Positions 1 to 62,207 are shown, counted from the whole stretch's first letter. The stretch: 62,207 bases of DNA, filler included, from Globobulimina sp. (GCA_003354225.1; 29 parts of 29 records of this genome joined end to end with filler, not necessarily neighbours in it), one strand, 5' to 3'. Notes: generated from the sequence alone by a model not told the origin. Numbers and translations: made by a program.

Positions 1-1019
1 CAGATTTCAAAAACTAGCACCATACGAAGCCACAGATTGGCAGGTCTTGCCAGAAAATAACTATTCAAAATTCCAGGATGGCACTGAGAAAATCCCATTT
101 GTCAAACCATTAAGCGAACCATATCCAGACGGACCATTTACGGAAACACGGCCAGAACCGCTATTGGTTTGGAATGATTTCCAGGAACGCTACGAATTGA
201 GAGACAAACGCATCATCTCTGAAAAAACCAAGAAAACCCTGTTGTCGATGCATCGGAGAGAACCAATGAAATGGAATAAGTTGTCTCTATCCAAATATTT
301 AGGAATGAGTCCGGAAACCATTGACTTTATCTTCTGGGAAAATGAAATGAGATTAAAATATAAAATCCCGTACGATTTGGATAGCATTAAGTTATTGGAG
401 GCTTACTGCGGCACCGCAGACATTGTCGAATCAAAAGTTTATTCGATGATGGCCTATTCCGAGGTTACTGGCGATCCCTTTTTCACTGCCGGCAAAATGA
501 CAAAAGCGAGTCCTTTGGTGGTGCACGAAGATGAAGTGGACGAACAGCTGTATTCTTGGCAGAAAAAGCAGCGTTTTCGGCCAAATTTGAGGTGTGAAAA
601 TTCTGCCAAATTCTGCATTGCGTATTGCTTAAATAGGTATGAAATAATTTTGCAGCAAAGATCAGTATGAGATGATAGCTGAAGATGGCAGTGGTTCTGG
701 CAAATATATTTTGTCGGAGAATGAGATGATAAATGATGGGAAGAGGTCTTTTTTGATCGTGGATGTGGACGATGACACTGTGGGGAAAATATGGGGGTTA
801 CCGATGAATGTCAAAGTGAGGGAGAATAATGGCAAGATGAGGTGGGCCACATTGGAGGAGCTAAACTATTGCCGCGAGAAGGAATATCCTAAGAATGGAG
901 GCACTGCGTATAACAGACTGAGAGGGAAAAATAGGAAAATGTTTAAAAAGTTTAAAAGAGACTTTCCGAGAAGACCTTATATTGATCGCCAGTATTTTGA
1001 AGGACATTGGAATACATAA
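1..1019 (+). CDS. Mitoribosomal small-subunit protein mS45/Bot1/GCD1-like, 5' partial; intron 592-655
   Basis: ISEKTKKTLLSMHRREPMKWNKLSLSKYLGMS..IDFIFW and C-terminal VKVRENNGKMRWATLEE resemble mS45/GCD1 motifs. Splicing GT592..AG655 fuses the 207-aa and 115-aa ORFs in frame (..PNLS-KDQYEMIAE). The 3' end may be chimeric. Confidence 0.6.
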
Positions 1020-1344
1020 CTGTTGCATGGTATATTTTTGATCTCCCATCCCTTTTTACCTGAATAATTTTTTGGTTTGCAACATTATGAGCATTAGTTA
1101 TGACTCTGTTGCCATCGATAATAAATCCTGAACCGTTAATTGTGCTTGGAGGCAGCATCATCCATGGCTTTGCATAGGAAGGTTCGCTGTTAACAGTGTA
1201 TATCTGTACCATTGCATTTGCTATCCCATCTTCCTGTTTTTCTGCAAGGGCAGGACCGGATATTATTAACTGAAAGATAAATATAAGAAATATTAACGCG
1301 GTTATTTGAATGGTACTTCTGAATTGTCTTGTGGAACTATTCAT
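1012..1344 (-). CDS. Bacterial trypsin-like (HtrA/DegP2-type) serine protease, N-terminal part only
   Basis: Signal peptide (..GPALA), then PW...GSGFIIDGNRVITNAHNV..IQVKR....YHATV. Homology stops before the catalytic Asp/Ser, where the sequence runs into the eukaryotic gene. Confidence 0.8.
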
Positions 1345-1566
1345 CAATTATATCTACTTCATTGAATGGATGCCGTCTTGCCAAACAACACAACGGTATT
1401 AAAACCAGTATTTTTACGAGTTGTTACATCACATTAATTAACTTATCGTTTTATTTAGGAAAAACCTTAATGTTTTAGGGGTCATGAATGTACCTCGCAC
1501 AGTTGGCAATAATGAATTTCCATGTTATATATAGCATATGGCTCTATCTTCAAGGTTTGTTAGATC

Positions 1567-2050
1567 ATGACCCGTATCAAAAGGATTGATTTTCTGAGAC
1601 AAGTTACATTAATAGCGATGATATTGCTTTGTGTGACAGTACTTTATGGCTGTGATACAGAGTCCAGCCGTTTAGATGGCATTACTATTGAAAAACCCGG
1701 AAAGGCTGAATTTGTATCGAGTCAAACCTGCATCGAGTGCCATGAGGAACAATATAAGCAATGGACCGGCTCTCATCATGACCTGGCCATGGATCTGGCT
1801 ACAGAACAGACTGTAATCGGTGATTTCAATGATTCAACATATACTGCTCATGGTGTTACATCCACTTTTTACAAAAAAGACGGGAAATTCTTTACACGAA
1901 CGGACAGTCCCGACGGAACACTTCAGGATTACGAAATAAAGTACGTCTTCGGGGTCGATCCTCTTCAGCAGTATATGATCGAATTCCCTGACGGCCGTAT
2001 CCAGCTGCCGGATATCGGCTGGGATGACCATCCAAAGGAAGAAGGCGGCC
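1567..2050 (+). CDS. Bacterial multiheme c-type cytochrome lipoprotein (c554-like/TPR family), 3' truncated
   Basis: Lipobox LYGC, heme motif CIECH, WTGSHHDLAM, GDF, and FGVDPLQQYMIEFPDGRIQ. No introns; higher GC. Confidence 0.85.
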
Positions 2051-2150
2051 NNNNNNNNNNNNNNNNNNNNNNNNNNNNNNNNNNNNNNNNNNNNTTAATT
2101 AATTAANNNNNNNNNNNNNNNNNNNNNNNNNNNNNNNNNNNNNNNNNNNN
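2051..2150. other. Artificial contig linker N44-TTAATTAATTAA-N44 (stops in all six frames). It recurs 28 times, roughly every 2150 bp.
   Basis: Identical 100-nt spacer between size-sorted contigs (1-2050, 2151-4200, 4301-6350 ... 60161-62207). Confidence 0.99.
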
Positions 2151-3820
2151 GAAGCCGCCTCATCGTATTATTTGCAATCGGAGCTAGAGTCTGCGTACAA
2201 TTCTCACAGAAGGTGCCACCGCAAATATTTAAGGTCTCATTCAATGTGGCATTGTTACCATCTAAACAGCTCAGAACAATGCCGCGCGCATTCAATATAA
2301 ACAATGGCGGGGAATACATGGTGATTGGAAACGTATTGTCCCAAGCTTGCCCTGCTGAAAAGTCCGGAATTATGGCATCAATTCGTGCAGAAATATCACC
2401 GACTGCACAACCCATGAAAAAATCATCAGGTCCGCAATAATAATTTACGGTCACATTCGTGTCGTTGGGGCAACGAACCATATCTTTGTGCAGTGGACAA
2501 AAATATGTTGCCATACTTTTATCAAATTCGTGTACACGCAAATAACTCTATTGATATCGCATTTTATTATAAACGTTTTCATTTAAAATGTTTTAAATAC
2601 GATATCCCGACACAAATTTGATAAAAGTTGTTTTTATGTTATGGTACCTTGACAGTATAATGAGCCTGAATTGTCAATGCAAGTATGTGTTGGATCGTAA
2701 ATACCACCAAACTCATCGACATCGCAATTATGAAATGCTGCGCCTTCTTCATAATATGGATATTCTTCATATAGCTGCAAATACCATTCATTACAAACGC
2801 CCGCAGCACTGAGAGGAATATGGAATGATACACCTTGATTATCAAAGGAAATGGTAAAATTCTCAAACTCTTCTCCTAATTAATGATTGTAACAACGTTA
2901 TATATGACCAGATAGAAACATATATATTACGTACCCGCTTCAGATAAATCAATTTCGACAGTTTCCGGATCGGTTAAATCAAGATCCGGAAGGTAGGCAT
3001 TGTTCCCTTGAAGTATGGGAGCACAAAAAAGTGGCTCACCTTCCTCATCGCCACAATGTATAACAATGGAATACAGCGCAGGGTCGCTGTTTAGTGGGGC
3101 CTGTAATAATTCGTCTTGAATCTCCCAATACGATGCATACGCACCAAAGACATTAATGCCAACGGTTTCATTTGTGGCATTATCCCAGTCGAGCACGTCG
3201 AGATAGCCATACTTGCCGGAGAGGTCACCCACTTCGCACGAATATGCCACCAAATCAAAGTTATCTATGTCGCAGCTATATTGACCTAAATAATATTCAG
3301 ATTCTTCATAGATTGATGATGATGGAATGCAACCGCCATACGACGCGCAGGCGATATTTCCTGAGGATGGACCACAAGCCATCCATGGGTCAAAATGTCT
3401 GCCGGTAAAATTTGAATGGCATTCTATGCCCATTCTGTCCGGGCCCTGCCCATATGTCCATTTGTCGTGAATATGCATCGATAAGCCTTCTTCGCTACAA
3501 TTTCCATTTTCAAACAATGACCAATCGACTGCGCTGAAGTCTAAATCATACCACATTGCATTTTGGAAAAGATCAACATAGCCAGTTAACCGATTGTAGA
3601 CAGTATTTGGTTTCGACAGGCCATTTCCTAAATGATTTCTGAGTATATAATAGCATATATGTATGTATGTATTTGTTTTTTTTTGTTTTGTATATTAAAT
3701 ATTGTGTTACAACATTACAATTTACCGAAACAGAGCTTCTGCTAATGTTGAACCATGAGTTTGATTCACAATTAAAGTGATTATCAATATGGAATATTGA
3801 CAGATACTTTTTCTGTGCAT
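2151..3820 (-). CDS. Secreted protein with two Cu/Zn-SOD-fold (Cu-only SOD5-like) domains; exons 3820-3726, 3638-2935, 2875-2648, 2483-2151; 3' partial
   Basis: Signal peptide MHRKSICQYSILIITLIVNQTHG. Domain 1: MHIH..TGRHFDP..CEVGDLSGKYG..SIVIH. Domain 2: LQLY..FGGIYDP..CAVGDISAR..GIVLS. Three GT-AG introns keep the frame. Confidence 0.75.
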
Positions 3821-5169
3821 GACTCAGTAAGATGTTTTTCAGAACAAAATGTCAAGAAAAAGTATACAAACAAAATACGTACAATGATGACAATTTTCGT
3901 CCAAATTGCTAAACACAATTCGTCAATGAATAAAACACATGTAATTCCGATAAATTATTAATAATCACTCGAAATTAAATTGCTTTTTACCGAATTCCGA
4001 TAAATTTTTAACGAATTCGAATATGAATATTCAAAATTGCTTTCACCGGAATCCATGGCCATTTCATCAGAATATTCTGAATCATCTTCCCTGTAAGAAT
4101 CTGTTATGGCTATTTCTGGTTTAGATATTGTATGTTTCTCCGCAGAACTTTGATCATCTGTACTATGATAATCATCATTGTCTTCATTATCTGAATTAGA
4201 NNNNNNNNNNNNNNNNNNNNNNNNNNNNNNNNNNNNNNNNNNNNTTAATTAATTAANNNNNNNNNNNNNNNNNNNNNNNNNNNNNNNNNNNNNNNNNNNN
4301 GGACATCGATGAAATTCTTATTTTGTGCTCAGTGCAATCCTAAGAATAACATAATGTGGATTTGTAAAAAACTATTAATATAACACCGTATATAGAATAG
4401 AATTTTGTGACTGATATAGAGAAAAAGACCACTGAGGTCGGATATGAATATTTGCTGTTAACGTCTCGGTCTAAACAATGACCTTTGAGAACACTAAAGT
4501 TTGAGGTTTTGTAAATTAATTAATAAAAACATGAAGTTCACACTAAAAAATAAGTAACACTCAAAAATAGAAACAAGAAATAATTAAATAAATAAAAAGT
4601 TAGAACCCCAGGCAGATAACAAAAATAAAATGGGGATATTTCGCATATTTTATCAAAATAAAACAACCCATAAACAAATATGCAAATTTGGGCAAAATTT
4701 AAAGATATAATAATATAAATATTATTATTCTTTGTCAAAAATGTTTGATTTTATAAAAAGAAAATGGAACAATACATTAAAAAATTTCAGTATTTTTCAA
4801 TAAATTTGTATATACAATGGAAACAATGATATCATAAAGAAATTAACTACAAACAAATAAGCAGTCGCAATATTAAAACAGTAGGAATATACACAAAACA
4901 TTGCATTTGCCTATTTTCACTCTCTTGTACATAAATGTGATTGTAAGGTGTAAAAAATAAAAGAAAAATGTATACAGAAAGTCAGATCCATAAACATTTC
5001 AACATGATAAGCAATCAAAAAATATATTTAATAAAACAATAAGAATTTTGTTATAAGATTTTAAAGGGACAATAAAACAAAAGGTACGGCATAGAAAAAA
5101 AGTGAATATAACCAAACTAAAATAACTTGATTTAAACTAATGATTAATACCAATTTAATACATTTTCAT

Positions 5170-10648: not shown

Positions 10649-11690
10649 NNNNNNNNNNNNNNNNNNNNNNNNNNNNNNNNNNNNNNNNNNNNTTAATTAA
10701 TTAANNNNNNNNNNNNNNNNNNNNNNNNNNNNNNNNNNNNNNNNNNNNAATATATTAAAATGTTAAAAGCATTCAACAATAATTATTAATGTACTGTACA
10801 GTGTATATATTATAATGTAGACTCTAATTCACTTTATTAAATATATGAAATTTAAATAGGCAATAAAGTTTCTGAATAATATGTACACGAAAAACATTAA
10901 CTGTATATATAATATTATATAAATCGCATTATTTAATTGTCATATTTACTCATTAAGTATATTTGCAATTATATTTAATCAAATTTTTTATATTATTTCA
11001 ATTTGTTCGTTACGAAAAAAATGGGAAGAAAATGATTTGTTAGGAATTGTTGTATATGGATCGCGTTTATGTGGAATGTGTGGTATTATCAGCTGTTTAT
11101 ATTTATCTATGAAATTTAGCAAGAAAATCTATTATCAAATTTGTGCCTTTTGTTGTATTAAATTTGCGGAAAATGGTATAAAAAATAGTATGAGATCATG
11201 ATGTATATAAGTTAAACTGTGCAGTGTCTTGTAAATTTTTGTTTGAATGAATTGAAAATAATTAAATTTATTTATAATAAATAGTGTCTTTACAGTGCAA
11301 AATGTGACTCGCTTTGGTTAAAACTTGCAAAACATAAAACATTAGAAAATAAAACAGACACAATCTGGTTCTGATAAAAGCTTGGAGACAACAGAAAAAT
11401 CGGAGCCATGAATAGATTGTAACATATAACTAAAAAATTGTTAATGTACATTCTTGCTATATATATATATTTATTACCTAACAACGCCATAAAAGTAACT
11501 TTATTTGCTGTTTTTTGCTATAGCCAGAACTGTTTTATTTAATAAAATAGAAACAAAAAAACAGAATTTTGAGACTCAAAAAGCAAAAAATAAAATAGAA
11601 AACTGTGATAATTGGGATTTGAACCCAAATCTTATTGAATAAAATGCTCTCATCGAGCTATTATCACTATATTCTATGGATTGCGATAAA

Positions 11691-17244: not shown

Positions 17245-18387
17245 ATGGACGATGTTGTTCGCATAAATTCAGCCCAATCCGTAGTTACCGATGTTGTTGT
17301 TGATGAGAAATCAAATATAATAATGCCTGCAAAAGTGTTCAGTTTGGATGAGATTTTATCAATATTTTCAGCATCACTTGTATATATTGAATTAATCAAT
17401 GAACTTAAGCAAGGATTTATTGATTATTCAAGTAAAGTGGTGTATGCCGCACCAGTTATTCATATTGGTTCAACGGATAACAATTCGCCAATACCACAGC
17501 TGAGTGGTGGAGGTGATGTCTGTTTAAAATCTGGTTATATTGTCAATGATAAATATTATGTGATTAAAATAGCAGGCGGAGGTTTTAAAAATGAAGAAAC
17601 AAAACAAGAGTATCCAAATTCCGGTGCAATGTTAGTATTTTCACAACTGAGTGGAGCATTAAATGGTATATTATTGGACAACGGAGTATTAACTGAATTA
17701 CGTACAGCCGCTGCGAGTGCATTAGCATCCAAATATTTTGCACCTAAAAAAATTACAAATATTGGTATTGTTGGAACTGGCGTTCAAGCGAGATATCAAT
17801 TGGATATGTTACAACATGTTATTCCATTTACAAATAATAATAACATCAATGTGTATGTTTATGGTCGTTGTCCGCAAAAATGCGTAAAATATCAACAAGA
17901 TATGTTTGAAAAAGGTATAAAATGTAAAATTGCGGCGGATATGTTTGATATTACAGCAAATTGTAATTTACTGATAATGTGTACATCCGCGCGAAGTCCG
18001 GTGTTAATGGAGAAACATTTAAATAGAAATTATAAAACTTATGGATTACATATAAATTGTATTGGTGCGGATAGCCATGGAAAGCAAGAATTGGATGAAA
18101 TAATTGTATCGAAATATACAGATTTGGTGTTGGTTGATAGCAAAGCACAGTGTTTCGATTTTGGTGAAGTTCAACATGTTGTTAAAAATAAAACAATTGC
18201 AATGGATATGAATAAAATTATGGAATTTGGTGTTGTGTTAAATGAGAATATTTTGGCAAAGTTGCAAAGACAAAATGAAAATGATAAAAGAGTGACTTTG
18301 TTTGATAGCACAGGCGTTGCTGTCCAGGATGTTGTGATTGCAAAGATGGTGTATCAAGCATTGACATCTAACAATAATAAACTATAA
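17245..18387 (+). CDS. Ornithine cyclodeaminase/mu-crystallin family protein
   Basis: YYVIKIA, LLDNGVLTELRTAAASALA, IGIVGTGVQARYQ, HINCIGADSHGKQELD, TLFDSTGVAVQD. Confidence 0.93.
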   Translation: MDDVVRINSAQSVVTDVVVDEKSNIIMPAKVFSLDEILSIFSASLVYIELINELKQGFIDYSSKVVYAAPVIHIGSTDNNSPIPQLSGGGDVCLKSGYIVNDKYYVIKIAGGGFKNEETKQEYPNSGAMLVFSQLSGALNGILLDNGVLTELRTAAASALASKYFAPKKITNIGIVGTGVQARYQLDMLQHVIPFTNNNNINVYVYGRCPQKCVKYQQDMFEKGIKCKIAADMFDITANCNLLIMCTSARSPVLMEKHLNRNYKTYGLHINCIGADSHGKQELDEIIVSKYTDLVLVDSKAQCFDFGEVQHVVKNKTIAMDMNKIMEFGVVLNENILAKLQRQNENDKRVTLFDSTGVAVQDVVIAKMVYQALTSNNNKL

Positions 18388-21322: not shown

Positions 21323-21493
21323 TGTTAAGTTGACGAGTGAAAACTAATCGAATTAGTGATTTTACTTTCAATTCACTTAAATGCACAAACTCTNNNNNNN
21401 NNNNNNNNNNNNNNNNNNNNNNNNNNNNNNNNNNNNNTTAATTAATTAANNNNNNNNNNNNNNNNNNNNNNNNNNNNNNNNNNNNNNNNNNNN

Positions 21494-23085
21494 AAAAAAC
21501 ACACCTGCTTTGGCAATACTAATTGTTTGCTGTTCCATAACTTCATGAATTGCAGTACGATCCGATTCTTCCATTTTATCAAATTCATCAATGCAACAGA
21601 TACCTTTATCCGCCAATACCAAGGCACCACCTTCTAATCCCATATCCTGTGTGACAGGATCTCGCATCACCGACGCAGTTAAACCAACACCGCTGCTGCC
21701 TTTACCAGTGGTATACACACAACGTGGTGCCACATAACTTATATGTTTTAATAACTGCGATTTTGCGACACCGGGATCGCCCATTAACAATATATTTATA
21801 TCACCGCGTATTTTCATACCACCACTGGCCGCTAATACTTTAGTTACGCCACCAACCAATACCAATAATAGTGCTTTTTTAACGTCTTCCAAACCATATA
21901 TCTCCGGTGCGATACTCCGCGATAACTTATCATAAATATTGTCCTCATTCTCATTAATTTCACGTACCTGTCTCAATAATTCCTTACTCTGATCCTCAAT
22001 GTTATAACCCTTCTTTTCTTGATGTATATTTTGTGTATGCAAATATGTATTCGTTGTTAAACCTGCGCGCATTGCTTGAAAGCCAGAAACGTTTGGGATC
22101 GGCAACCAAATGCCATCCACAGTGATCTTATCACCGCATTGACATAATCGCGTACATTCACCCAAAGCATATATATTCACACTGCGAGGGACGTTGCCCT
22201 CTGGTACTTCTGACGGTAATTCTTGTAATCGAATCTCTTGAAAACGAACAAATTTACTGCCGCGCGTCTGTGCTAATACTGGTCGTTTGTTGCGGTTTTG
22301 TTGGCATTGTTGCGACGGACACTCGAGTACTTGGCGATATTCTTTTTTGTTTATAATTTGATAAATCTCATTGCCACAAACATCGCAAATGTAAGTGGCG
22401 ACTCTCATCATTGGACGTACTTCGGTGATCCGTGTGACAATGCCACGAACACGAATTAAGGCACCGATATTGGCTGCGGATACCTTACGTATTGCTAATA
22501 TATCGCTGGCAGTACGACAGATAAAACTAACTTCATATCTTCGCAATAATTCTTTGGGAATCGCACTTTTTTCGTCTTTTAATGCTGTTGTATCTGTTAA
22601 ATCATTTTGCATTCGTACTCTTTGTACAAAAACAAAAACAAAATCAAGATTTATATATCACACATCATAAATAAATGTTGTTTGTATATAATTATACCTC
22701 CAATCAGCAAGAACATCGATAGAATCTTCCTGGACGGCAGCGTCGAGATCGCGTAATGGCATAACATTGTCGATTGCATTGGAGAAGATAGCAATATATC
22801 GTAAGGTATTTGCTTCAATGTCATGTATTACTTGTTGTCCTTTGTCGTATTTTTTAAAATCATCCAAATTAATTGCAATTCGAACACGTTGGCGATTGGC
22901 GACTTCTTTTAACATATTCCAATATTTTTTCACGTTTCTTTTCATCTTGAAATTTTGCAAAAAAGATTCAATGATTTCTGTTGTGCATTATCGGAAATAT
23001 ACTGTTGAGTTTAAGCACGGAAAAATAAATACAAATCATATTGTTAACCTTGTTGTTCTTGGAAGTTTGGGCGCTTTGTTGCCAT
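21494..23085 (-). CDS. MCM7: DNA replication licensing factor MCM7; exons 23085-23049, 22977-22698, 22619-~21505; 3' truncated
   Basis: Zn finger CDVCG..CPSQQC, GDPGVAKSQLL, YTTGKGSSGVGLTA (MCM7-type), CCIDEFDKM, IHEVMEQQTISIAKAG. Introns are frame-consistent. Confidence 0.95.
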
Positions 23086-30089: not shown

Positions 30090-31857
30090 ACAAAGTGGAG
30101 AGGTACACTTTATGGGCGCCATAGCAGACCACGACGGTATATTTTATGGTATCAAATTACATAAACCAAACGGCGAAAACAATGGGACGGTGAATGGTAT
30201 TAAATACTTTGAATTTGACCAAAACTGTGGTATATTCGTGCAAGAAGCTAAAATCAAACAAAGTGCAGCAACAAATTCCAATTCTGAGTTGCCAAGAATC
30301 AGCATCGAAGACAGAGTCTTTGTGAAATCAAAATATCAGCATGGCACTTTATTATTTGTTGGCAGTGTCGACTTTGAACAAGAATGTGTATACGGTGTGG
30401 AATTGGAAGAGCCTTTGGGTGACAACGACGGCTCAGTCGGCGGCAGGCAATATTTCCATGGCATGGCGCATTACGGCGTGTTCTGCAAAGCTGCGGATAT
30501 TGCGATGGAGCAAAATGAGCCAAATGTGCTATTTCTGGAAAATGACATAAGTGTTATGAACCTACACAAAAAAAATGACAACGCCAACAACGGCACACCG
30601 GTTCCTCACAACGTCAACAATGGCAATGTGACTCACAGCACAAACTCAACATATTCAGACACAAACAGCCCATTACGGCATGTTGCCTTTAATGAGGATG
30701 GCAAAGAAGATAAATCCTCGTATGACAAAATGGAGAACTTTGCCGATGTCGACAGTGAGTATCCGCAGATTGGCAAAACCATTGTCATTGACGGGGGGAC
30801 CTACAGTACGCGGATCGGTATTTGTGGCGAAAAGGAGCCAACTTTGGTCATGGACACTGTCGACGATTGGACAGTGATCAAATCGCAGAAGCAACAGCCA
30901 CTGATTTATGGCACTATTAACAAATGGAAGTACATTGAACAATTATGGCTGTCCTGCATTGAGGAGAAATTGCAGTTTGATTCGACTGAACATCCGCTAA
31001 TATTGACAGAAACGCACGATATTTCCAAAGGTGATCGCGAGAAATTGACGCAAATGCTTTTTGAGCAGATACAGTGTCCCGCTTTTTATGTGTCGCCGTC
31101 TTCATTGTTCTCATTGTATTCGACAGGTAATATATGTGTATATATGCTGTAATTTTATGAAGTGAATGCACCAAAAACGTTAACAGGAAGGACCTCTGGC
31201 TGTGTGTTGGATTTTGCTTATGACTGTACTCGGATTGTGCCGATTTATGAGGGCTATGTACTGCAGCTCAATGCAGCTACGATCCAAATTGGTGGACAGC
31301 ACATATCATCGCAGTTGGCGTTGAATTTGGAGAAAAATAGCAAAGTTTCGCAGATCAAATCATTTGATATGAATGTATTGGAGGATATAAAAAGGAAACA
31401 TTGTGTTTGCGTGGCTTTAGATGATGGCGGAAAAGTGAATAATATCAAGTATAAATTGCCGGATGGTCAGGAAATAACTATTACGTCAAAGGAAGCGATA
31501 CAACCAACGGAGATTTTGTTCAGAAAAACGGATTTGATAAATACTGTATATTCTAATATTATGAAATGTGATAAACAATCTTATTCGGATATGTTTAACA
31601 ATGTGATTGTTTGTGGTGGGACATCGCTATTAAAAGGGATTAATAATAAAATAAAAATTGAATTGAATGAAGTGATAAAAGAAAATAAAGAGACAGCCAC
31701 ACAAATATTGCATGTTGCCAATCCAACACATCCACAATTGTCTGCGTGGGTTGGTGCTTCCATATTTTCTTCATTGGGTTCATTTGATAGGGCGTTGGTT
31801 ACAATACAAGAATATCAAGAATGTGGCGCACGAATTGTAAATCATAAATGTTTTTAA
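30090..31857 (+). CDS. Two CAP-Gly domains fused to an actin-related (Arp) domain; intron 31127-31186; 5' partial
   Basis: YGIKL..GENNGTVNGIKYF and YGVELEEPLGDNDGSVGGRQYF; then IVIDGGTYSTRIG, EHPLILTE, DREKLTQMLFE, VPIYEGY, YKLPDGQEITI, SAWVGASI, EYQECGARIVNHKCF. Confidence 0.92.
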
Positions 31858-58013: not shown

Positions 58014-60060
58014 TTTTCTGAACGGATCTCATGGATACGTTCAAACTGTGATTCCCCTACAACGGAATATCACACTTGATTTAGCAATAACTGTTACCTC
58101 AAACCCTTTCTCCGAGACCAAAGAGATCGTAAAATCGCCTATCGCGTCAGGAGGCGTCCTGTACTTCACGCAAACAGTGATTCCCCTACAACGGAATATC
58201 ACACCTGATTTAGCACAATTTGCTATCTCAGAACCTTTCTCTGATAACTATGCAAAACTTTGCAAGAAAATAACATATTAACAAAACACAACAAAATTAA
58301 AACAGTACCAAACTACCATATAACACAACTAAGACTAAATAACCAAACACATAAAGCTAAGAGAGCAATAATACTAGGATGTAAAAACGAAGCTGACCTC
58401 CGCACATGTGAGGAAATAATGAGTACATATAAATGGTACAAAAGACACCTAAACACAAAATGGTTAATTGAAGTAGTTTTCCAAGATGCAAAACAATGTA
58501 TAAACTATAGAGGTAAGTGGATTAGAAACAATAGTAATAAAAAATATAAAATCTATGCATACACAACAGCAAAACAAAAAATTAAAAACATTACAGCAAC
58601 CAACTTCACAATCCAGCAAATTAAAAAAAAAATAAGTAAAACATTGCTAAAAACAGAACTAAGTACCAAATTTAAAGAACAGATAAATAAAACTATATAC
58701 GAACTCACACCAGTAGAGATACGGGACTTAGACAAAACATTACCTTTTGAAGGGAAAAAAGAAATAATAGATTGCCTACAAATATATAATATAATAGATG
58801 CAAAGAAAAGCATAAAAACAATCCAAGAAGATAACCGAACAGCAAAAAATAACACTAAATTTACAATATGGTCTAGAAATATTGGAGGAGCACTAAAAAA
58901 AAAATTAGAACCAGATAGCTCTTTTATACTAGACATCCTACTGAAAAACCCAACAATAATAGCCATACAAGAACACCAAAAAAATAAGCTAAACACAAAA
59001 ACATTTAAAAAAATCATGAAAATAGAAAATTACACGCTCCTTGCACACTCCAAAGCTGAGTACATACAAAACAAACGAGAAGGTAGAGCATCAGGAGGCC
59101 TAGCAACATGGATCAAAACATCAGTGCTACACAATTACAACACATCAGTAAATAAAAATACAGAATATATACAAAGCATAATACTGAGCCCTAAACAACA
59201 TAACACAACAACAGATAAACCTATACATATCCTAAATGGATACTGTAGGCCGACATACTCAAAAAATATAGGAAACAACCTAGCAAAAAACTACCTAATA
59301 CAAATGTTAACACTTTACCATAAATGGGCGAAACATTATACTATAATAGCAGGAGACTTTAATAGCAGAACTACATTAACAGGAGACCACGTCAACTCCA
59401 ATAGAGGAACCATGTTTCATAATGCATTAAAAAAAAATAAACTACAATCACTAAATAAAACCATGACGTATGGACAATCAACAAATAGATCACACACTAG
59501 TATATGTGAAGGTACTAGCATAGTGGACTTAGTAATAATACCAGATAAAGACTCAAACAACTGGGAAAGCCTAGAAATAACAGACCCACACAGATATAAC
59601 TACAACAAGCCCAAAAAAAGTTGCCACTTCTCACTATATGCGAAATCAAACATACCATTGCTAGAAACAACAACAAAAATTGACTATCTATACAAACTAA
59701 ACTTTAATGAAGCAGACTCTCACTGCTTACAAAAACTCCTACAAACACAAGGTAACGAAGCATTCAACCAGATAATACAAGCAACGCGACAGGAAATAAC
59801 AAGCGAGACAACAATAGAGGAAAAAAAGGAAATCATCAACCTAGCGCAGCTAGCAATTTTCGCTACATTACATATAATAGCAGCTCGTAGTTTTGGATTT
59901 AGGAAAATATTCTTAGGTAACTTAAACAAAGCCAAACCATGGGAATATGATGAAATATGCTATAACTTAACCCAAAAAATCAAAAAGACAAAAAACAACC
60001 CAGAAAATAACGAAGAAATTAGTAACATGCTAACAGAACTAACGGAAAGAATAACACAAA
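58014..60060 (+). mobile_element. Non-LTR (LINE-like) retrotransposon: APE endonuclease ORF, truncated before RT; 45-bp direct repeats at 58042 and 58171
   Basis: IWSRNIGG, IIAIQEH, GRASGGLA, LNGYCRP, IIAGDFNS, SIVDLVI, SCH; strongly A-rich sense strand. Confidence 0.85.
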
Positions 60061-60611
60061 NNNNNNNNNNNNNNNNNNNNNNNNNNNNNNNNNNNNNNNN
60101 NNNNTTAATTAATTAANNNNNNNNNNNNNNNNNNNNNNNNNNNNNNNNNNNNNNNNNNNNGTTTATGTGTTGCAATTCCAGCAAGTATTCACAAGCAACT
60201 TATGATTAATGTTGTAAGTTTCGGTGTTACCAGATCCAGCATACGCAGTTTAATAGCACGTGATGAGAAACGCCACTTAACAACATGGATGCGATTACAT
60301 TCCCTCAAATGGAATAGGAGCATAATACGTTTTAAAATATGTCGTTTGTTTCAGCAGATAGATAATACGTCGTTTGTTGATACGATTAGCTATAGTCACC
60401 TCAGAGATGTACATCAAAACGAGCCTACACAAGTTAATTAGTGTTCGAATTTTATTTGGGTATATATACTGATTATAGTTTGTTGCATCAGGGACGTAAG
60501 TATCGAAAGTATTAAACAATCAAAACATTTTATTATTAAATAATTTGATTTACGAAAAAATATCATTAAAACTAGTACTTTTGTTTAGTGATTGTTTGTT
60601 GAATTATTAAA

Positions 60612-61519
60612 TTAGATAACTCCATACTTCTCCCAAAATTGTGGTGGAATTGCTGTTCCATTTTCTTTATAAACTCCCATAACATCCAATTTTATTTGAA
60701 TGGTGAGACCTGTTGCGGTTTCTTGTTGCGGTACAAATTCAATACAAAGCGTGTCCACTCGCGATGTGTTTAAATTAATTGAAAATGTTTTTGTCGCTTC
60801 CTCGCCTTTCACCATGTAATTATCACCGTATTTATACACAGAACTTAATTTAACAGCAATGCTAAATACCTGAGGCGGTAATTGTAATAATCGTAGTCCA
60901 CATTTTTTATTTCTTACCATTAATATCCAATTTTCCTCTGATGTACGTACATTGAAATAAGTCTTTCGATGTTGTCTTGGTTGGGAACAATTTGCCATAA
61001 TTTGTTTGAACAATTTGTTATTTATATTCCAAACAAAGATAACATTTGGCTTTAAATACTTGATCGATTCATATAAATTCTCAATTTGAAATACTTCAAT
61101 TTGTGCTAGAAATGTCAATTCAATTGTTTTGCACCTTTACATTCAGACAATAACATAAAAGGGTCGCTACCACATAATACATAGTCTGACTCTGATACAA
61201 TGGAATTGGTATAAAAAGCGTCCGTTTCTGTGCATTCTAATGTTACGCGACCACTAAATTCACAATTTTCCGGGACAGAAATCGTTTTTATAAAAAATGC
61301 AATTGTTTTCCTACCTATTTTTACACGCAACGAACATTGGAAAATAATGCCATGGATTGTAAATTCCGGGGCAATCCATTCATGTATATTATACACCTTA
61401 CCCCAATAAAAATCTGACGCTGAAGACCGGATGCTCTTCTGTCTGTGTGAGATTTGATTTTCCAAATTTCTCAAAAAACAAACCAAAAACTCAAAACATT
61501 CTTCCTCAACTTTTCTCAT
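60612..61519 (-). pseudogene. Tandem MATH-like domain gene broken by a 5-bp duplication (CAATT CAATT, 61116-61125)
   Basis: Removing one copy fuses the 134-aa and 168-aa ORFs (..KQLTFLAQIEVFQI..FVWNI). Confidence 0.6.
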
Positions 61520-61631
61520 CCCCTCACTAATACCTACCTGTTAAACAGTTCTGTCTTTAAAATATCCAAATATTCCTACATTGACACATTGGCACACTAA
61601 TATCGCGAGAAACAAACAGAGCGCTAATCGA

Positions 61632-61765
61632 ATACATACAGCATTATATTTTAAACCAATTCGTTCAAACGTTTCAGTCCGATACACAGTGTGATATATT
61701 ATACAGATTTGATACATACAGCATCCCTTTTAAACTAATTCGTTCAAATGTTTCTGTCCGATACA
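61632..61765. repeat. Imperfect ~55-bp direct repeat (61632-61686, 61712-61765) upstream of the Nod/Nor-like gene
   Basis: ATACATACAGCAT..TTTAAAC(C/T)AATTCGTTCAAA(C/T)GTTTC(A/T)GTCCGATACA occurs twice. Confidence 0.85.
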
Positions 61766-61869
61766 AACTAATAAATCTGTGCCAATGTAGCAAGTAAATG
61801 CATTCCAAAACTCCCTAAATATAACCTATACATTATAATATAATTATACATATTTTAGATAAGCCAAGT

Positions 61870-62207
61870 ATGGCAACAGAAGTATCAGACAACGATGAAT
61901 GGATTTTACGTCCAGCCAAAACGAATTGGATCGCAACATTATCGAATAAAAATTACTGGGCATTTTACTTCCTCGTAATCGTAGCAATCTGTGTAGGCGG
62001 TATTGGTTATTTCGGTGAAGTGGCTCATTACGAAGTGCCACCATTGTGTGATTTCGTTGGTCCTGACGGCAGTGTGGTCATTTCAGCCAAGAGTATCAAT
62101 CACGGCGAGGAAGTGTTCCATTTACGTGGATTAATGGCTTACGGCTCCTTTTTAGGTGACGGCTCAGAGCGTGGTCCAGATTATACCGCCGAGGCATTAC
62201 ACGAATG
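61870..62207 (+). CDS. nod: Nitric-oxide dismutase-like / quinol-dependent NO reductase (Nod/qNor family), N-terminal 112 aa, truncated by the window end
   Basis: Manual translation: MATEVSDNDEWILRPAKTNWIATLSNKNYWAFYFLVIVAICVGGIGYFGEVAHYEVPPLCDFVGPDGSVVISAKSINHGEEVFHLRGLMAYGSFLGDGSERGPDYTAEALHE. Confidence 0.88.
   Translation, partial: MATEVSDNDEWILRPAKTNWIATLSNKNYWAFYFLVIVAICVGGIGYFGEVAHYEVPPLCDFVGPDGSVVISAKSINHGEEVFHLRGLMAYGSFLGDGSERGPDYTAEALHE

Follow-up and report, generated by a model that had tools for sequence, protein, structure and literature searches.

Genes of the Nor/Nod-like class have been reported from Globobulimina spp. (Woehle et al. 2018, PMC6783311), from Nonionella stella and Bolivina argentea (Gomaa et al. 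2021, PMC8153729) and from ten Peruvian rotaliids (Woehle et al. 2022, PMC9231491). The original prediction for the locus studied here had described the class as already known in denitrifying benthic foraminifera, and it was indeed in print in 2018, 2021 and 2022. In the available text of these reports, the foraminiferal Nor is of the NorZ type, eukaryotic and nuclear, and is monophyletic beside bacterial Nod; it is described without the quinol site, with Nod substitutions, as highly expressed and as present in several copies. The window analysed here is the whole stretch of 62,207 nt from Globobulimina sp. (GCA_003354225.1), in which 29 parts are joined end to end with filler. It ends in what is very probably the 5' end of a nuclear, transcribed, eukaryote-clade Nod-like gene of the NorZ/qNor branch, of the kind reported from denitrifying rotaliid foraminifera. 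The window agrees with the published type and clade as far as 112 residues allow, and the window together with its relatives is consistent with the described residues, expression and copy number. Compared by published description, the foraminiferal Nor shows no essential difference from the window gene, which is of a kind already published, as far as the available text goes, with regard to host group, Nod-like residues, high expression and a nuclear location beside a eukaryotic gene.

Outside the eukaryotes, the putative Nod of 'Candidatus Methylomirabilis oxyfera' (DAMO_2434/2437; PMC3413370) has its architecture, as described in the available text, in common with the family of the fragment. 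A putative Nod is defined there by the replacement of an FeB His by Asn, the replacement of a nearby Glu by Gln and the loss of the quinol site (Ettwig et al. 2012, PMC3413370). The Methylomirabilota sequences L052 and L083 bear the same N-terminal G-D-G-x-E-R-G-P-D marks as the fragment, and the Methylomirabilis Nod and the clade-mates of the fragment share the His to Asn change, the Glu to Gln change and the quinol-site loss. The differences are of degree and of host: the Methylomirabilota Nod is 44% identical to the fragment over 99 columns, lies deep inside the bacterial sister clade, and is an intron-free gene of a bacterial host. The marine Alpha-type Nod of Alphaproteobacteria from oxygen-deficient zones (bioRxiv 10.1101/2023.11.21.568154) is among the most similar prokaryotic sequences. 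Its members L004 and L005 (ETNP/Black Sea MAGs) and the Magnetovibrio sequence L001 are 54-57% identical to the fragment, but are bacterial genes in bacterial arrays and form a separate clade.

Canonical qNORs with solved structures (3ayf; Neisseria meningitidis 6fwf; Alcaligenes xylosoxidans 6t6v) have the same helix and heme-less cytochrome-c-like domain as the fragment, and share with it the Ca2+-site Gly and the PD(Y/W)TA(E/D) motif. They carry His and Tyr, whereas the fragment has Asp97 and Glu100, and their HH FeB pair, Glu and quinol triad are absent from the relatives of the fragment.

The frame under study begins with an ATG at 61870 on the plus strand and runs to 62205, 112 codons that are stop-free up to the window end at 62207. 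These codons (1-112; 61870..62205) represent the coding start of the Nod-like NorZ gene, which is intron-free here and open at the window end. The frame is missing from the ordinary ORF list because it has no stop. It was present exactly as the original prediction of a hidden ATG frame had described it, and its translation, ...EVPPLCDFVGPDGSVVISAKSINHGEEVFHLRGLMAYGSFLGDGSERGPDYTAEALHE, agreed with the peptide quoted there. From Met1-Ala2 onward, the peptide is colinear with relatives that have the same start (P0001 and P0002).

The peptide opens with a hydrophilic tail of about 29 residues, followed by one strongly hydrophobic stretch at residues ~30-50 (Kyte-Doolittle mean 2.1 over 19 residues). 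This single stretch, at 61957..62019 on the plus strand, matches the one transmembrane helix that had been predicted, and residues 27-57 align to residues 5-35 of the Neisseria qNOR 6fwf. An extra N-terminal helix is a mark of qNor-type enzymes. Behind the helix, a Pfam search detected the NorB cytochrome-c-like domain PF22085 with a score of 50.5 bits (cut-off 29; E 4e-13), well above chance, and placed residues 62-111 (62053..62202, plus strand) on positions 4-53 of its 181. This represents the start of a heme-less cytochrome-c-like domain, and no CxxCH motif was found in the 112 residues of the fragment.

Homology searches pointed in the same direction. Quinol-dependent NO reductases made up 11 of the 12 PDB sequences listed (E 1.6e-8 to 1.3e-5), with alignments beginning at the first membrane helix; the fragment aligned to residues 5-89 of 6fwf. 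In a large protein collection, 21 of 157 candidates were retained at E<=1e-3 (best 2.1e-47), all 21 with PF22085, and the best were 66-79% identical to the fragment. Sixteen of the 21 were full-length (728-844 aa), each with the heme-copper core PF00115. A search of NCBIfam with the fragment returned no family. Heme-copper NO enzymes thus came out best in Pfam, the PDB and the protein collection alike, and the outcome that had been named as refuting, best hits outside this group, was absent. Judged by its peptide, the fragment belongs to the NorZ/qNor family, with the predicted extra N-terminal helix and heme-less cytochrome-c-like domain.

The most informative part of the fragment is the loop G96-D97-G98-S99-E100 (62155..62169, plus strand), which aligns with Gly74-His75-Gly76-Ala77-Tyr78 of the Alcaligenes qNOR. 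According to the available text of two reports (PMC6713497, PMC10256718), the Gly76 carbonyl and the Tyr78 hydroxyl of the A. xylosoxidans qNOR ligate a Ca2+ that bridges the two hemes. In that numbering, Gly98 of the fragment is the retained glycine, His75 is replaced by Asp97 and Tyr78 by Glu100. The fragment therefore reads GDGSERGPD, in contrast to the G-H-G-x-Y of canonical qNOR. The original prediction had relied on two family motifs, and both were borne out: the solved Alcaligenes qNOR and the sampled proteobacterial qNORs show GSIWGHGAYQAPDWTADWLH, and two Methylomirabilota paralogues show GLMTYGSFWGDG(G/A)ERGPD(Y/F)TAEALH. The fragment follows the second of these, with Asp and Glu at the His and Tyr positions as in Nod-like rows.

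We tallied these positions across the alignment. At the His75/His90 position of qNOR, Asp was present in 113/113 readable Nod-like rows and in the fragment, one more row being gapped. At the Ca-ligand Tyr position, the 113 Nod-like rows showed E in 96, D in 10, L in 4, M in 2 and K in 1; the fragment has E. The canonical Methylomirabilota paralogue L084, which ends at its locus edge before the Asp746 site, has His and Tyr at the loop. In an evenly drawn sample of 151 proteobacterial genomes, nine proteins had the domain above the cut-off and eight were readable; the ninth, L167, was unmatched by the motif expressions and stands outside the tally. Six of the eight combined GHG..Y with HH and Glu, two combined GDG..E with HN and Gln, and none was mixed. 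The Methylomirabilota paralogues showed the same co-segregation.

The marker G-D-G-x-(E/D)-R-G-P-D is one that we defined in this analysis and is not a published definition of Nod. By this marker, the predicted peptide of the fragment bears the N-terminal signature of the Nod-like branch. The carboxylates of Asp97 and Glu100 may still bind Ca2+. The Ca2+-site marker may be a minor novel detail.

The three features that define Nod all lie downstream of the window end, and can be read in the relatives only. The closest full-length relative, P0005, is 76% identical to the fragment over 92 columns. Aligned with 3ayf (the G. stearothermophilus qNOR), P0005 shows Ile in place of His328, Ser in place of Glu332 and Gly in place of Asp746; the His559-His560 pair reads His-Asn, Glu581 is Gln, and His508, Glu512 and Glu516 are retained. 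Among the relatives, the FeB-histidine site was Asn in 107/107 readable rows and the Glu to Gln change was present in 107/108, in co-segregation tallies that are partly circular, the prokaryote loci having been fished with ...HNFYW and the metagenome loci with ERG[PV]D... motifs. From these relatives we infer that the unseen remainder of the gene would encode a 12-helix core in which one FeB His is Asn, the Glu is Gln and the three polar quinol residues are lost.

For the phylogeny, prokaryote-genome loci were found with an alignment of the full-length protein relatives as query, and we took the best 80 of 582 confirmed prokaryote-genome loci and 80 of 153 metagenome loci. A Methylomirabilota genome contained two Nod-type paralogues and a canonical third. 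The FastTree analysis comprised 104 rows: the fragment, 21 database proteins, 80 prokaryote loci and two Methylomirabilota paralogues. In it, the fragment fell within starred sets of 5, 11 and 12 rows. A quick IQ-TREE analysis (LG+C20 PMSF) was run on 61 rows, 56 of 115 chosen by clade and 5 of 9 sample proteins, with five canonical qNORs among the 61 as outgroup. Here the fragment was placed in sets of 5 (SH-aLRT 100), 13 (100) and 14 (96) rows. Its clade had as sister (82) a group of 36 bacterial Nod-like rows, Methylomirabilota among them, and the eukaryote and bacterial Nod-like clades stood together (99) as sister to an HN-type clade of six proteins.

None of the best 80 prokaryote-genome loci fell within the clade of the fragment. 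The best prokaryote-genome rows reached 57% identity to the fragment, compared with 66-79% within the clade; the Methylomirabilota Nod paralogues reached 44% (99 columns) and the qNor paralogue 36%. The sequences thus place the fragment, with strong support in two trees, in an apparently monophyletic eukaryote clade beside bacterial Nod, a clade whose members are database proteins and metagenome contigs with eukaryote-like flanks and whose 'foraminiferal' label comes from the literature. The phylogenetic check suggested at the outset therefore returned a eukaryote clade sister to bacterial Nod-like enzymes with both FastTree and IQ-TREE. This placement agrees with the monophyletic foraminiferal clade beside Nod described in the available text of earlier studies (PMC6783311, PMC8153729).

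In the six proteins of the deep HN/Gln-type clade (P0014-P0016 and P0018-P0020), which lie outside the eukaryote and bacterial Nod-like clades, the Asp746 site is occupied by Val or Ile, and the position of the Ca-ligand Tyr by Leu or Met.

Several of the clade-mates come from metagenomes. The preprint on the marine Alpha-type Nod, in its available text, placed two ODZ sequences in 'the eukaryotic Globobulimina clade', in agreement with our trees. Our metagenome clade-mates L086-L090 have uninterrupted coding matches of 2.2-2.4 kb with GC3 of 0.61-0.76; their flanks carry CT-rich microsatellites and 8-22-nt minisatellites, and L090 ends in telomere-like repeats of the GGGTT(T/C)A type. On the contig of L086, which is 10 kb long, large ORFs were sparse and had no meaningful Pfam match, and a bacterial-like gene array was not seen. 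The contigs of L086-L090 look eukaryotic, which suggests that other, more GC-rich eukaryotes carry the clade of the fragment.

What the enzyme would do has to be considered from its relatives and from the literature. The coding start would encode a tail of about 29 residues, helix 1 and, of the heme-less cytochrome-c-like domain, the first third with its Ca2+ loop. Going by the relatives, the full protein would bind heme b, heme b3 and, at a His/His/Asn site, a non-heme metal, and would be without the canonical quinol site. The literature suggests that such an enzyme would consume NO from the host NirK and act as the NO-turnover step of host denitrification. Its electrons would not be drawn from quinol at the canonical site. 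With modest confidence, we favour N2O formation with another, non-quinol electron donor over dismutation to N2 and O2. A 2024 paper on N. stella, in its available text, draws the enzyme as a terminal acceptor fed through cytochrome c.

That the product is a true NO dismutase, catalysing 2 NO -> N2 + O2, is the alternative that fares best, and one that we regard as a real if lesser possibility. The N-terminal marks of the fragment accompany the Nod catalytic signature, and its closest relatives lack the quinol site and carry the His to Asn and Glu to Gln changes on which Ettwig et al. based Nod (PMC3413370, available text). Gomaa et al. favour this reading: their report, as far as its available text shows, notes that the foraminiferal Nor misses the quinol site and shares the Nod substitutions, and calls the enzyme 'likely Nod' (PMC8153729). 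The foraminiferal genomes studied are also described as lacking NosZ in the available text of PMC6783311. The same text speaks against dismutation, however, in that measurements showed both Globobulimina species to produce N2O and the function was judged 'not Nod-like'. In addition, the eukaryote clade branches as sister of, and not within, the clade containing Methylomirabilota, and the low-spin heme ligands are kept, which would fit continued electron transfer. According to the available text of the 2024 preprint, no biochemical characterization of any Nod has been published, which also weighs against this reading, and among the matches listed none was announced in titles from 2023 on. More tentative still, and in our view rather doubtful, is the idea that the eukaryote-clade enzyme is a genuine NO dismutase in which the remodelling of the Ca2+ site, His to Asp and Tyr to Glu, is part of the change from reductase to dismutase.

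N2O formation by a non-quinol-dependent enzyme, the function that we favour, also has to be set against that of a canonical quinol-dependent qNor serving NO detoxification. The fragment does share its domain and fold family with canonical qNors, and the resemblance to the G. stearothermophilus qNOR extends to GLM.YG..LG.GS..GPDYTAEAL. Against this, every canonical qNOR that was solved or sampled carries His and Tyr at the positions of Asp and Glu in the fragment, and the clade-mates of the fragment are without the quinol triad; we therefore consider a canonical qNor very unlikely.

The window also provides a view of the region upstream of the coding start. Ten runs of four studies contain part of the stretch and four were examined, X1 being DNA-like and the kind of X5, X8 and X9 being guessed. 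A putative non-coding first exon, or 5' leader, lies at 61473..61547 on the plus strand, with an exact donor after 61547 and a 5' end that is resolved to the depth bin; loose contig ends place its start near 61499-61510. In the bin 61473-61539, word depth was 11906 in X5 and 1042 in X9 (RNA-like, from two studies other than that of X1); the preceding bin had 48 and 0, and over 61607-61807 both runs had 0. X1 showed a depth of 4.2 (DNA) at the leader, which is therefore single-copy. No ATG occurs in 61499-61547, and the spliced leader contains none before that at 61870.

Between the leader and the coding start lies a putative 5'-UTR intron of 311 nt (61548..61858, plus strand; 31% GC). One X5 contig (depth 4363.6) joins 61547 to 61859, skipping 311 nt with GT..AG ends, at a joint whose shorter side has 20 letters at 90% likeness, below the tool's comfort limit of 30. 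Exon 2 would then start with the last 11 nt of the 5' UTR, 61859..61869 on the plus strand, behind the splice joint. The search for introns that had been proposed as a check thus yielded a GT..AG joint, 61547/61859, in an RNA-like contig, and a 5'-UTR intron in the Nod-like gene is likely. This intron may be a small new detail, as the available literature reports introns for NirK and not for Nor. In this layout, a short leader exon without coding sequence would be followed by the 311-nt GT..AG intron and then by a coding start free of introns. The putative intron contains a 38-nt direct repeat (61649-61686 and 61728-61765).

Contigs of the DNA-like run X1 match the window exactly over 60538-61386, 61424-61624 and from 61869 on, with the exception of 18 extra letters behind 61035. 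Word depth in X1 was 4-7 on the flank and 13-17 on the gene contigs. The bins 61674-61807 were without depth in all four runs, and the X1 contigs end at 61624 and restart at 61869. Just upstream of the leader exon, X1 depth rose to 613-4656 over 61339-61472, from 4-7 in the adjoining sequence, and many divergent loose ends occurred behind 61438; this high-copy stretch is probably a dispersed repeat.

The coding part itself was covered in X5 and X9 by contigs with a summed word depth of 10^4-10^5, a poor measure of expression; on 60538-61309, X5 reached only 2-4. Several high-depth variant letters were present in the coding part, and these point to more than one copy, allele or species. It could be argued that the frame is a dead N-terminal remnant, either a pseudogene or a truncated copy, given that only its first 112 codons are visible and that some copies among the several sequence variants in the runs could be decayed. 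However, the 336 nt contain no stop or frameshift, and the fragment preserves 13/13 of the columns that are invariant across 22 relatives. Contigs that run past the window end were found in all four runs (5, 5, 2 and 9), and RNA-like contigs cover the frame at very high word depth. A remnant thus appears highly improbable, and a working, transcribed gene remains our reading.

The surroundings of the gene are eukaryotic in character. GC content in 2-kb steps is 25-41%, and Pfam matches to the ORFs of the window include an MCM helicase, F-box and SPRY proteins, a CAP-Gly/actin protein, an ornithine cyclodeaminase and a LINE-type endonuclease. The MCM helicase piece (21446-22612, minus strand) comprises the P-loop and OB domains (E 9e-70), and the ornithine cyclodeaminase/mu-crystallin ORF lies at 17245-18387 on the plus strand (E 3e-40); both are commonplace genes, eukaryotic or metabolic in kind. 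A single ORF at 30112-31152 (plus strand) carries two CAP-Gly stretches (E 8e-32) and, behind them, the beginning of an actin domain (E 6e-20), and may be a CAP-Gly/actin fusion; it perhaps goes on in 31162-31857. The LINE-like ORF (58260-60116, plus strand) matches an endonuclease/reverse-transcriptase-type endonuclease (PF14529, 1.5e-8); this element lies 1.7 kb upstream of the Nod-like gene and has a strong A-over-T skew. The AT-rich, eukaryotic setting that had been proposed is therefore visible both in the base composition and in the ORFs of the window.

Two further observations concern the window as a whole. A tRNA at 11604-11667 (minus strand) was indicated by Rfam (43.5 bits, E 5.9e-6), and ARAGORN found none in the window. 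There are 58 runs of exactly 44 N, paired 12 nt apart, and the pairs recur every ~2149 nt (for example 2051-2094 with 2107-2150, and 60061-60104 with 60117-60160). They interrupt ORFs such as the MCM and LINE frames, and look like regular masking and not assembly gaps.

The composition of the fragment is that of its surroundings, with a GC of 0.45 and a GC3 of 0.41, where ten other ORFs of the window have GC3 of 0.25-0.47. Eleven relatives on metagenome contigs have GC3 of 0.54-0.76, well above the 0.41 of the fragment. This is evidence that the composition of the gene is adapted to its host. The host-like GC3, the GT..AG joint in the 5' leader and a clade without a prokaryote-genome sequence together uphold the claim of a host-nuclear gene, and we conclude that the gene is very probably encoded in host nuclear DNA. 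Least probable of all is that the frame is a bacterial contaminant or an assembly chimera joined within 61520-61870: no DNA contig covers 61674-61807 in the four runs and the family is overwhelmingly prokaryotic, but GC3 (0.41) is in the host range and well below that of the relatives, the GT..AG joint spans exactly this interval, the leader exon is single-copy in DNA, X1 has comparable DNA depth to either side, and sequences from prokaryote genomes are absent from the clade (best 57% identity).

Head-to-head with the leader exon, on the minus strand, lie two orphan ORFs of 134 and 168 aa (61115/61118-61519 and 60612-61118). They switch frame at 61115-61118, and the X5 contigs are 5 nt short exactly there; 18 extra nt behind 61035 are present in contigs of X1, X5 and X8. 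The original prediction had called this neighbour MATH-like, a description for which no firm support was found. The orphan ORFs matched no Pfam family even at E<=10 and had no paralogue within the window; ORF 61118-61519 had no homologue in the word index, and one orphan ORF had 0 matches among 1.84 billion representatives. A single-sequence AlphaFold model had a pLDDT of 42.7, too poor for a structure search. For one ORF, an atlas language-model search gave weak TRAF/MATH-like leads below threshold (0.83 and 0.75); for the other it gave none. The eukaryotic setting of the gene stands independently of this neighbour.

Foraminifera account for a sizeable share of the fixed nitrogen removed from sediments poor in oxygen. 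It is a testable question whether the product of their NO enzyme is the greenhouse gas N2O or N2 plus O2, and one that the window leaves unmoved because the catalytic part of the gene lies beyond the window end. The modest detail that the window adds is a genomic view of the 5' end of the gene, with its leader exon, 311-nt intron and head-to-head orphan ORF. Even a short 5' fragment can be assigned to the Nod-like or the canonical qNor group by the contrast between G-D-G-x-E and G-H-G-x-Y at the Ca2+ site. If the enzyme were a dismutase, it would supply oxygen from within and open a path to N2 that needs no N2O reductase: a protist would make O2 and N2 from NO in its own cell, an 'oxygenic denitrification' in a eukaryote.
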